From IMG/VR virus record IMGVR_UViG_2548876959_000021, positions 1 to 26,803 of that record: a stretch of DNA of 26,803 nucleotides, one strand, 5' to 3'. Positions 24,001 through 26,803 of this stretch are shown here, one piece after another. The stretch is from a virus. Its lineage: Duplodnaviria > Heunggongvirae > Uroviricota > Caudoviricetes. Each line of letters begins with the position of its first letter. Within the stretch, counting starts at the first letter, position 1. Position numbers: made by a program.

Positions 24001-26803
24001 TTCAGGATAGTCAGTGGCTACGGCTCAGTTTGGGTTGTGCTGTTGCTGGGCGGCGATGACGCCTGTACGCATTTGGTGATCCGGTTCTGCTTCCGGCATT
24101 CGCTTAATTCAGCACAACGATAAGAGCACTCGGTGCATTTAAGCCAAGCCCCATAAGGGAGAATGCTCTTACCTGTTGCACAGATATAAAAAATCCCGAA
24201 ACCGTTATGCAGGCTCTAACTATTACCTGCGAACTGTTTCGGGATTGCATTTTGCAGACCTCTCAGCCTGCGATGGTTGGAGTTCCAGACGATACGTCGA
24301 AGTGACCAACTAGGCGGAATCGGTAGTAAGCGCCGCCTCTTTTTATCTCACTACCACAACGAGCGAATTAACCCATCTATCCCATACTGGAGAATTCACC
24401 ATGATATTTTATCCTGGCATTTTCCATTGCCTTTCTCGCCTCCTCGATATCGTCAAAACACCCTACATGAATCCTTTTACCATTGACCCTAATTCTTCCA
24501 ACCCACTTGTTTGCAGCAGAATTAAAAGTCACCCCCTTCACACCAGATGAATTGTTTTTCCTCATCTTGCTGTTCCATGAGTTTTGAGTGTTAGTAACAA
24601 CACGAAGATTGGCTATCCGGTTATCAGACCTATCACCATTAATATGGTCAATCACATCGGTTGGCCAATCATTGTAAACCATCAGCCATGCAATTCTATG
24701 GACATATAGCCGCATTCCATAAAGTTTTACCTGCAGATATCCATTTGTTTTATAGCCAGCAACAGCGCCATAGATAAATCTAGAAGACCGAGGTGGATTC
24801 TTCCATGTAAGAATTCCAGTATCTGGATTGTAATTAAAAAGTCTCAATGCATCTTCACGTTTTAACATAGGCGAACCACATAGATATTAGAGCCTGCTGA
24901 CATAGAAATATCACCACGAGAGAAGTCGCCAAAAGCGATATTTCTCAGGCTCTATTCCTATGTGCTCTCGAGTTTATGATGCGCATGTCAGTGCGCTTAG
25001 AACTTAAAGATGAGGTGGGTAAAAACTGAAAGAATGTGAACGGATATAAATCTGCCATTCTTGAGTCAAATTTACCCAACTTTATTCAAAAAGTCAATAT
25101 CATGCCGTTAATATGTTGCCATCCGTGGCAATCATGCTGCTAACGTGTGACCGCATTCAAGATATTGTCTGCGATTGACTCTTCCTTGTGGCATTGCACC
25201 ACCAGAGCGTCATACAGCGGCTTAACAGTGCGTGACCAGGTGGGTTGAGTAAGGTTTGGGATTAGCATCGTTACAGCGCGATATGCGGCGCTTGCTGGCA
25301 TTCTTGAATAGCCGACACCTTTGCATCTTCCGCACTCTTTCTCAACAACTCTCCCCCACTGCTCCGTTTTTGCTATATCAACCGCACGGCCTGTACCGTG
25401 GCAATCTCTGCATCTTGCGCCCGGCGTAGCGGCACTACGGCAATAATCCGCATAAGCGAATGTTGCGAGCACTTGCAGTACCTTTGCCTTAGTATTTCCT
25501 TCAAGCTTTGCCACGCCACGGTATTTCCCCGATACCTTGTGTGCAAATTGCATCAGATAGTTGATAGCCTTTTGTTTGTCGTTCTGGCTGAGTTCATGCT
25601 TACCGCAGAATGCAGCCATTCCGAATCCGGCTTGTGATTGCGCCATCCCCATAGCAGCCATCACATCAGTACCGGAAAGAGAGTCAGAAGCCGTGGCCCG
25701 TGGTGAGTCGCTCATCATCGGGCTTTTTGGCGAATGAAATTTAGCTACGCTTTCGAGTCTCATGCGCCTTCTCCCTGTGCCTGAATCAATGTGAGGTTTC
25801 CGCAGAACACTGCGCCGGTATCGATATACATCTGGTTGGCAAACTTGAGTGGTTTCACTGCTGGCGTATGACCAAAGATGAACATGTCCGCGCCTTTGAT
25901 TTCTTTCACGATCCCGTCTTGTGAGTTGCTGATTCGTTCGCGGTTCCAGATTACCTGCTGATGATCAACTGGCTTTCCAAACTCGTATTCGTCACAAGGA
26001 TAATCGGCGTGGCAGATGACATATTTTTTATCTTTGCTCACCAGTTCGATGATTAACGGAAGTTCTTCTGCTTTATGGGCAAGAGCTTTAGCCAGAGTTT
26101 CTTTGTCGTAATCGAGATTAAAGAACCAACTACCGCCATTAAGCAGCCAGTGATTGACGTTTCCGCGCTCTGATAAGCCATCAATCATCATTTGCTCATG
26201 GTTTCCACGTACAGCTCTGAACCAGGGGAATGTGATTAATTCCAGGCATTCGACGTTCTCTATACCGCGATCAACCAAATCGCCAACCGAGATAAGCAGG
26301 TCTTTTTTGGTGTCGAATCCTATCGTCTCCAGTTTTTTCATCAGGTTCGTGTAGCATCCGTGCAGATCGCCAACTACCCAAATATTTCGGTATTTGCTGC
26401 CATCAATTTTTTCGTAATAGCGCATCTCTTTCACTCCATCCGCGATGAACCATGAGAACGTCGTTGACGATGGCGTGCATTTTCCCGTCTTTATCATCAA
26501 CGTATTTTCTGACCGTAACGCGACTACATTTCAGTCTGCGTGCTACTTCTGTCTGGTTTCCGTATGCTTCAACGAGCATGTCTGGAATGGTTTTTACTGA
26601 GAACGTCATGCGGCCTCACTTCTGCTATTTCGCAGGTCTTTGAGTTTCTGCTGATACTCCGCCTTGATGGCCCTGCACTCTTCGACAGTCCAGCGATGGC
26701 GGTTATGGTTTGATTCGATTTCGTCTACTGCTTCCTGCCCGATGCGATTAATCAGTTCGACGCGATACGGAACGAGATTTCCGCTTTTGTGCTGGTTGCA
26801 CAC

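Follow-up and report, generated by a model that had tools for sequence, protein, structure and literature searches.

A 682-nt insertion in the late leader of a lambda-type prophage carries an HNH-AP2 endonuclease gene behind a conserved, predicted doubly pseudoknotted RNA

Introduction

The late leader of phage lambda is a classic example of a regulatory region: RNA polymerase that has initiated at the late promoter PR' pauses at +16/+17 (in the region +9 to +17) for loading of the Q antiterminator, and the short leader RNA, 6S RNA, is roughly 190 nt long; we know of no function for it. Elsewhere in phages, translation of the T4 I-TevI gene and related homing endonuclease genes is controlled by simple, gene-specific RNA hairpins, and the put RNA of HK022, with two stem-loops, makes polymerase resistant to terminators. 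Here we describe a 26,803-nt stretch of a Caudoviricetes genome (IMG/VR record IMGVR_UViG_2548876959_000021, positions 1 to 26,803), hereafter called the window, in which a lambda-type late leader is interrupted at +9 by an insertion carrying an HNH-AP2 endonuclease gene and, 5' of it, a 124-nt element with the marks of a conserved structured RNA.

In lysogens PR' is reported to be constitutively active, with its transcripts terminated at tR'; in Shiga-toxin (Stx) phages the PR' leader also yields StxS, an Hfq-dependent, trans-acting small RNA (PMC7547250). An earlier note on the window, made by reading its sequence, had placed the HNH-AP2 gene between PR' and tR' and had regarded the insert as that gene in an unusual position. 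Our analysis confirms the observation and supports part of the interpretation, and it turned up the leader RNA, which we consider a more notable result than the HNH insertion itself.

Results

A 682-nt insertion at +9 of the late transcript

The features that define the insertion are as follows; Q, HNH and the late region are all encoded on the minus strand.

25069..25097, minus strand: late promoter PR', TTGACT-17-TAAATT (promoter scan and lambda alignment)
25055..25062, minus strand: AAGAATGG, positions +1 to +8 of the late transcript (alignments to lambda and to the EC01307 empty site)
24373..25054, minus strand: 682-nt insertion relative to lambda and EC01307 (alignments; one ATGG copy counted, the right one at 24376-24373)
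25030..25062, minus strand: weak hairpin at the 5' end of the transcript, spanning the junction and followed by UCAGUUUUUA (-6.2 kcal/mol, z -1.7)
24874..24997, minus strand: conserved structured leader RNA, 124 nt (RNAalifold consensus and covariance model R1)
24377..24868, minus strand: free-standing HNH_3 + AP2 endonuclease gene, 163 aa (Pfam and PHROG matches)
24188..24372, minus strand: rest of the lambda-type 6S leader (from lambda +9) to tR' (alignment and fold)

Identity to lambda J02459 extends through ...TGACTCAA and stops after AAGAATGG (25062-25055), where lambda reads AACGATGG; it restarts at ATGGGTTAATTCG (24376 on) and continues at about 98% through tR'. With A25062 taken as +1, by analogy with lambda, the junction falls at +9, so that lambda homology ends at +8 and the early transcribed region, including the +16/+17 pause site, is interrupted. 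An ATGG repeat stands at both junctions (25058-25055 on the left, 24376-24373 on the right). The terminator tR' is intact downstream, with a hairpin at about 24245-24194 (-28.3 kcal/mol, z -4.7) and a run of six U at 24193-24188. The break and restart of homology, the interrupted leader, the flanking repeats, an insert of about 680 bp and its position between PR' and tR' had all been read from the sequence in the earlier note, and all are borne out by the alignments with lambda and with the empty site in EC01307.

EC01307 is a natural empty site: it has the same promoter spacer variants, and AACAATGG runs without a break into GTTAATTCG. The full structure is found in 16 of 5426 complete E. coli genomes (98.7-99.9% identity), and among the records of the isolated-phage collection it has no carrier. 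The other matching genomes, about 640, mostly match at the flanks only, those listed covering 12% of the query in two pieces, and EC01307 is the one flank-only genome from which the detail of the empty site was taken. The insert has 40.3% GC, lower than Q (51%) and S-R-Rz (50%). From its left end the insert holds the weak 5' hairpin, the 124-nt structured RNA and the HNH gene, and the distance from junction to ATG is about 190 nt. The description of the insert as an HNH gene thus held as far as the gene goes and missed the roughly 190 nt before it, with the pseudoknotted RNA.

A conserved leader RNA with two predicted pseudoknots

The predicted parts of the 124-nt element are these.

24996-24981, minus strand: P0 hairpin, 5 bp, with loop 24991-24986 (RNAalifold)
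24964-24958 with 24883-24877, minus strand: helix P3a (RNAalifold)
24953-24946 with 24896-24889, minus strand: helix P3b (RNAalifold)
24945-24935 with 24915-24904, minus strand: helix P4 (RNAalifold)
24930-24925, minus strand: apical-loop GGCGAC (invariant in the 18 copies collected first)
24965..24970 with 24922-24917, minus strand: pseudoknot PK1, CGAGAG in the linker 5' of P3a with CUCUCG in the apical loop (covariation)
24897..24902 with 24991-24986, minus strand: pseudoknot PK2, UGUCAG in the bulge between P4 and P3b with CUGACA in the P0 loop (covariation)

P0 and P3a/P3b/P4 were predicted by RNAalifold with no prior input, while PK1 and PK2 were spotted by eye and then tested. Over 17-18 distinct sequences, 97.7-97.9% of the cells are paired, against 33-50% in controls slid by 1-3 columns, and compensatory changes occur in nine pairs, four of them in PK1. 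The covariance model R1, under which the window copy scores 135 bits, recovered divergent copies of the element; because R1 was built without the pseudoknots, the covariation of PK1 and PK2 in those copies is independent of the model.

In 47 distinct full-length copies PK1 takes six complementary states (CGAGAG/CTCTCG, CCCGAG/CTCGGG, CATGAG/CTCATG, TGAGAG/CTCTCA, CCAAGA/TCTTGG and CCTAGAG/CTCTGGG) and PK2 five (CTGACAT/ATGTCAG, CTGACGT/ACGTCAG, TCGCA/TGCGA, TCTCAC/GTGAGA and TCACAC/GTGTGA). Mean helix length is 6.1 for PK2 and 6.5 for PK1, compared with 4.0 and 5.6 when partners are shuffled between sequences. These pseudoknots were counted by script, as a MAFFT alignment of 46 variants set their strands out of register. 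G-U pairs in the element occur on the sense strand only, which points to an RNA rather than a DNA site. The alignments thus give good support to a conserved, covarying RNA fold with two pseudoknots.

Conserved unpaired nucleotides in the element are GAGCCUGAGAA and GGUGGCGAC. Both GAGCCUGAGAA and GGCGAC are kept in the 17-18 copies that were gathered first and independently; those added afterwards were retrieved with a pattern that holds both, and invariance in these is uninformative. P4 plus PK1 (about 18 bp) and P3a-P3b (about 19 bp) are of similar length, which would permit a compact fold with the two stacks side by side.

In permissive scans with cmscan against Rfam 15, the window copy had no match at E<=1, and in the common variant (L002) the element was likewise unmatched, with tRNAs and a weak osmY match elsewhere as the only hits. 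The Rfam 15 models for ribozymes, riboswitches and phage RNAs that went unmatched include hammerhead, twister, pistol, hatchet, HDV-like, glmS, C4 antisense and IsrK, and in the literature searched we found no description of an RNA upstream of rha, ant or KilA-N genes; in these sources, then, a description of the leader RNA was not found. A group I intron with an HNH open reading frame (ORF) was considered and rejected: there is no Rfam intron match, the ORF stop adjoins lambda 6S sequence, and the structured RNA lies 5' only.

The element precedes many kinds of gene in late operons

The common variant of the element is present in 919 of 5426 complete E. coli genomes and in 146 phage records, among them Sf101, CUS-3, epsilon34, SPN3UB, HK106, phi80 and 73 Stx2a-converting phages; the window type has no match in the isolated-phage collection. 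In phi80, model R1 places a copy between the annotated terminator after Rz and rha, and in 933W a weaker copy (24 bits, E 2e-4) lies directly 5' of ant, between R and Rz. Proteins encoded behind the element belong to P22_AR_N+ORF11CD3, Phage_pRha, KilA-N, ANT/KilAC, T5orf172/MUG113 or HNH_3, or are of no known family. An intrinsic terminator lies 10-45 nt 5' of the element in nearly all contexts, and in most phages the element stands behind this terminator within the Q-dependent operon. It follows tR'-like terminators in a Xenorhabdus bovienii contig and in L019, and in Xenorhabdus-type phages it lies between the endolysin and spanin genes, before other genes or before a different HNH gene (45% identical). 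The spacing from element to ATG is nearly constant across the family, at 4-9 nt, with an AGG/AAGG motif preceding the ATG. As judged from these contexts, the element is the shared 5' leader of highly variable DNA-binding and nuclease genes in late operons.

Several observations concern individual copies. In the spacer between element and ATG (window 24869-24876) the motif (A/U)CGC recurs 1-4 nt before the ATG of cargo genes that are not related to each other, which may mean that the conserved unit reaches the ATG; the motif might pair alternatively with GCG in the P0 stem. In phi80 the annotated start codon of rha (43739) lies inside the 3' part of the element (L182:2516-2636, equal to phi80 43647-43767), and the family pattern of an ATG 4-9 nt past the element suggests that the true rha start is further downstream. 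The prophage of E. coli GF131 (L062) is 99.9% identical to the window at the insert. It has HNH endonuclease genes at three sites, behind the helicase gene, ninB and Q, and a second, divergent copy of the element 5' of a KilA-N gene after the lysis cassette, a copy that the window is without. Three window-type copies precede different genes in Xenorhabdus beddingii DSM 4764 (L012, L014 and L016, two of them on very short contigs), which suggests several related prophages or assembly breaks at a repeat.

Some candidate copies were rejected. An exact 18-mer scan of representative genomes gave real matches in X. beddingii only, the rest failing model R1. The extra loci retrieved with the loose pattern ACTGACRT...TAYGTCAGCAGG (L051-L060) had no match to R1, and L050 was a chance match inside a coding region.

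The HNH gene and its lineage

The identification of the 163-aa product as an HNH-AP2 protein, also made in the earlier note, agrees with the profile searches: HNH_3 (PF13392) matches at 6e-17 (61.4 bits against a cut-off of 24.8), AP2 (PF00847) at 4.2e-8 (33.8 bits, barely above the cut-off of 33.3), and PHROG 99 (HNH endonuclease) at 1e-76. Residues 108-158, the AP2 part, align to the AP2 repeats of plant WRI1. The start ATG is 5 nt past the end of the RNA element as drawn by the covariance model and 8 nt past the basal stem, and the stop codon adjoins the right-hand ATGG.

In the phage collection the nearest matches to the protein are less than 48% identical. A protein search, with the contigs read, gave relatives at 85, 74, 65, 61 and 57% identity, each encoded directly 3' of an upstream gene, which in four of the five is Q (a 207-like, lambda-like protein and proteins of 254, 273 and 276 aa); in the fifth, the 57% relative, the contig ends within the upstream ORF. 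Lysis genes follow HNH in L004 and L005, contigs long enough to show them. The same element of about 124 nt lies 5' of each of these genes and, by eye, is better conserved than the HNH coding DNA. A more distant protein (P0009, 51% identity) is encoded in a different genomic context. These contexts point to the site just downstream of Q as a regular niche of this HNH lineage across several Q proteins; the earlier view that the placement is unusual thus stands for lambda and fails for the lineage, in which Q lies directly upstream in four of five relatives. The HNH insertion itself would, by its domains, be a known kind of gene, a free-standing homing-type nuclease, in an unusual niche.

History of the insertion

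Two IMG/VR contigs (L021 and L029) have lost about 320 bp from within the HNH ORF and match a cluster of 112-aa proteins (P0005), which suggests that these are decaying copies of the cassette. The ATGG repeats, low GC, empty allele, sporadic distribution and deleted copies fit a selfish gene of the homing type. The block Q-PR'-insert-6S is also found in at least 20 further contigs of differing backbone, with homology mostly starting at the start of Q, so modular recombination would spread it too. At its very start the insert is similar to the early transcribed region of leaders of the L004/L005 type, and the left junction may thus be a crossover between two types of late promoter rather than a simple insertion point.

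In the leaders of RMDEC465 (L002:3001-3200) and FDAARGOS_943 (L003:3001-3240) the insert is retained for its first 107 nt, with the 5' half of the element. At TAGAGCCTG these leaders then jump to the 3' half of tR', and tRNA-Asn and tRNA-Thr come next; the downstream tRNA genes are common to these leaders and the empty-site allele. TAGAGCCTG is a 9-nt repeat common to the element and the loop of lambda tR'. The HNH-less leaders are best explained, from this arrangement, as deletions between the 9-nt direct repeats of a window-type structure. The 107 nt had also been considered as an independent, alternative late leader, a view rejected as the HNH-less leaders end exactly at TAGAGCCTG. The FDAARGOS_943 leader has in addition a 46-nt GC-rich, hairpin-like insertion, GTGACTGCTCCCCGCCCTGTCGGGCGAGGGTTTACGGCGTTTTTCG (L003:3112-3157), absent from RMDEC465 and the window. 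Separately, the 5' strand of P3 (24946-24964, AGGAATAGAGCCTG) resembles the loop and 3' arm of lambda tR' (window 24207-24225, AGGTAATAGTTAGAGCCTG) beyond the 9-nt repeat, which may be chance or may reflect an older link between the element and tR'.

Neighbouring genes and flanks

The genes on either side of the leader are of lambda type.

25140..25763, minus strand: Q antiterminator gene, 207 aa, lambda type (Pfam Antiterm, 1.3e-57)
23467..23790, minus strand: holin S, first late gene downstream (identical lambda-family holin in strain GF131)

The DNA around Q is 97-98% identical to lambda. PR', which was correctly said to follow directly on Q, differs from the lambda promoter by two spacer substitutions and is otherwise identical; it is the sole strong sigma-70 match in a promoter scan of 23700-25300. 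The Q-binding region is placed between the PR' hexamers, and the -10-like pause-inducing element at +1 to +6 reads AAGAAT here and AACGAT in lambda.

Just past tR' (24125-24175, minus strand) about 45-55 nt are wholly unlike lambda (TCTCCCTTATGGGGCTTGGCTTAAATGCACCGA against GAGTCGATAATCGTGAAGAGTCGGCGAGCCTGGTTAGCC) before homology resumes, which has the look of a small mosaic substitution. At the other end of the window, positions 1-22500 encode P22-like head and DNA-packaging genes (portal, scaffold, coat and gp4/gp10-like), so that in this prophage a lambda-type Q-S-R-Rz module is combined with a structural module of P22-like type.

Discussion

Transcription and a possible role of the leader RNA

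Between 25054 and 24869 the scan found no promoter-like site (one other promoter-like match lies inside the HNH ORF), and on the coding strand it found no terminator-like site between PR' and the HNH gene. Related loci are built alike: L006 has TTGACT-17-TAAATT and L004 TTGACA-17-TAAATT 5' of the element with no terminator between, and in L005 a terminator follows right after HNH; in the window and in L004, L005 and L006, the element comes after the late promoter and before any efficient terminator. Since PR' is constitutive and no efficient terminator precedes the gene, we infer a Q-independent RNA of about 875 nt running from PR' to tR', and expression of HNH in lysogens is plausible. The pseudoknotted RNA ends 5 nt before the ATG, however, and transcription need not mean translation.

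We favour, as rather probable, the view that the insert is an accessory or selfish cassette of a structured leader RNA and a cargo gene, set at +9 of the late transcript and upstream of tR'. Polymerase from PR' would transcribe the leader RNA and HNH without Q and stop at tR', giving the product of about 875 nt in place of the 6S RNA of about 190 nt. The leader RNA would probably gate translation of the cargo in cis, as its predicted basal stem adjoins and partly covers the Shine-Dalgarno region, and such gating, lifted only under some condition, could limit the amount of a nuclease or DNA-binding protein that might do harm. When Q is present, the usual read-through into lysis and structural genes would follow. 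The cassette could have spread by homing, by recombination in conserved flanks (the Q-PR' region, or the terminator and RNA on the left), or by both.

A number of points weigh against this view. It is a case built on sequence, and the covariation is drawn from a modest number of clades. Many Q-independent transcripts could be stopped before the gene by the weak hairpin and U-rich run at +1 to +44, or likewise by Rho acting on the untranslated leader of about 195 nt; the fold makes it unlikely that the hairpin (+1 to +33) is a terminator as such, though it may have weak terminator activity. The Shine-Dalgarno sequence of HNH is poor (GUGG), and the AGG/AAGG of other family members sits 11-12 nt before the ATG, a wide gap for a classical Shine-Dalgarno sequence, so that its sequestration is a reading of the anatomy only. 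Homing by the endonuclease is no more than predicted. Lastly, the insert replaces the region +9 to +17, in which polymerase pauses in lambda for Q loading, with the Q-binding region and the -10-like element lying upstream of the junction. That the arrangement has lasted in many prophages that look intact, and with several Q types, nevertheless suggests that the insert is compatible with Q action, Q function being assumed from that persistence.

A wider version of this idea, which we put forward tentatively and think somewhat more apt to fail than to hold, is that the element represents a widespread and so far undescribed class of phage RNA with two pseudoknots, which would be either a ribozyme or a switch that senses a ligand or a condition, controlling variable antirepressor-like and nuclease genes (Rha, KilA-N, Ant, P22_AR, T5orf172 and HNH) in lambdoid and P22-like late operons, including those of phi80 and Shiga-toxin phages; in the window the RNA, and perhaps the nuclease, would be made continuously in lysogens.

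Other explanations

The locus could be a plain homing-endonuclease insertion, with the upstream 190 nt a functionless passenger and HNH simply expressed from PR' in lysogens. The clean junctions with their 4-nt repeat, the empty allele, sporadic distribution, low GC and decayed copies would all be expected of it, as would the HNH-AP2 domains. Against this, the 124 nt seem, by eye, better conserved than the HNH coding DNA among the 57-85% relatives, they covary as an RNA structure, and they precede unrelated genes in hundreds of phages; we regard a mere passenger as improbable. Much the same low probability attaches, in our judgement, to a role of the element as DNA, in which it would serve as a recognition or homology region for nucleases, or for recombination that swaps the cargo, and its RNA structure would be incidental. 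Variable cargo behind a conserved element and terminator is the pattern expected at a boundary of cassette exchange, and the repeat TAGAGCCTG evidently mediated the deletion seen in the leaders of RMDEC465 and FDAARGOS_943. Pairing is nonetheless maintained by compensatory changes in four helices and in both pseudoknots, with G-U tolerated on the sense strand only, and a protein-binding DNA site would not show such a pattern. Roles at the level of DNA and of RNA are not mutually exclusive.

If the element acts as RNA, it need not act on translation. A self-cleaving ribozyme or RNase processing site would cut the late polycistronic RNA shortly after the terminator hairpin that precedes it, free the cargo mRNA and leave the upstream mRNA with a protective 3' hairpin, and the position of the element directly after an intrinsic terminator in nearly all contexts would suit this; so would its compact multi-helix fold with two pseudoknots and conserved unpaired GAGCCUGAGAA and GGUGGCGAC, typical of catalytic or ligand-binding RNAs, and ribozymes flanking single genes in prophages are on record (PMC3088659). 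We think it unlikely, though less so than the two preceding accounts: the permissive cmscan matched no Rfam ribozyme family, a hammerhead core is absent by eye (CUGAGAA rather than CUGANGA), and the 4-9 nt spacing to the ATG, with a stem beside the Shine-Dalgarno region, suits translational control at least equally. Placed as it is in the window and in L004-L006, with a constitutive late promoter on one side and a terminator on the other, the element could also be a processive antitermination RNA of the put kind or a trans-acting small RNA made constitutively in lysogens, and PR' leader RNAs can indeed be functional small RNAs, StxS for one (PMC7547250). Most copies, however, lie inside Q-antiterminated operons directly before a start codon, where put-like activity would be redundant and a role in cis is the simpler reading; we consider this very improbable indeed.

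What the locus suggests more widely

The locus shows that there is room in the late leader for an entire gene cassette, and that a single lineage of nuclease occupies this site with several types of Q. The element itself, a complex RNA fold, is found in roughly one in six complete E. coli genomes and also in phages that have been studied closely (phi80, 933W and P22-like phages), before genes whose regulation and role are poorly understood. Were it a switch or ribozyme, it would offer an experimental route into how phages control variable, possibly toxic genes, and a new class of RNA from very familiar genomes.

Comparison with known systems

With the free-standing HNH-AP2 (HNH_3) homing endonucleases of phages, the gene described here, a putative member, shares the pair of domains, small size, low GC, sporadic presence and both empty and decayed alleles; the nearest matches in the collection are less than 48% identical. 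It differs from them in that its lineage keeps to a single niche, in the late leader directly after Q, and in that it carries a structured RNA leader shared with non-nuclease genes. The PR'-qut-6S-tR' region of lambda is matched in its promoter, Q-binding region, +1 to +6 element, 6S sequence from +9 and tR', at about 98% identity; in contrast to lambda, the leader of the window is interrupted at +9 by 682 nt, and the predicted RNA of about 875 nt carries an ORF. StxS likewise is an RNA encoded between a constitutive PR' and tR' (PMC7547250); the element has no sequence relation to it, is 124 nt long and pseudoknotted, forms the 5' leader of an ORF, and in most cases occupies another part of the late operon.

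The cassette also recalls the morons and accessory genes of lambdoid late operons (stx, bor, phi80 rha and 933W ant), which are extra genes at a recombination hot spot, and phi80 rha and 933W ant have the same RNA family upstream. Unlike morons, the HNH cassette has no promoter of its own that we could find by scanning, and unlike stx, its gene lies upstream of tR', so that its transcription would not need Q. The role that we propose for the leader RNA also recalls the homing endonuclease genes of the T4 I-TevI type, in which, as here, a stable RNA structure stands beside the ribosome-binding site of a nuclease gene within a longer phage transcript; what sets the present element apart is that, in place of such simple hairpins, it is predicted to form a large, conserved, two-pseudoknot fold common to many gene families.

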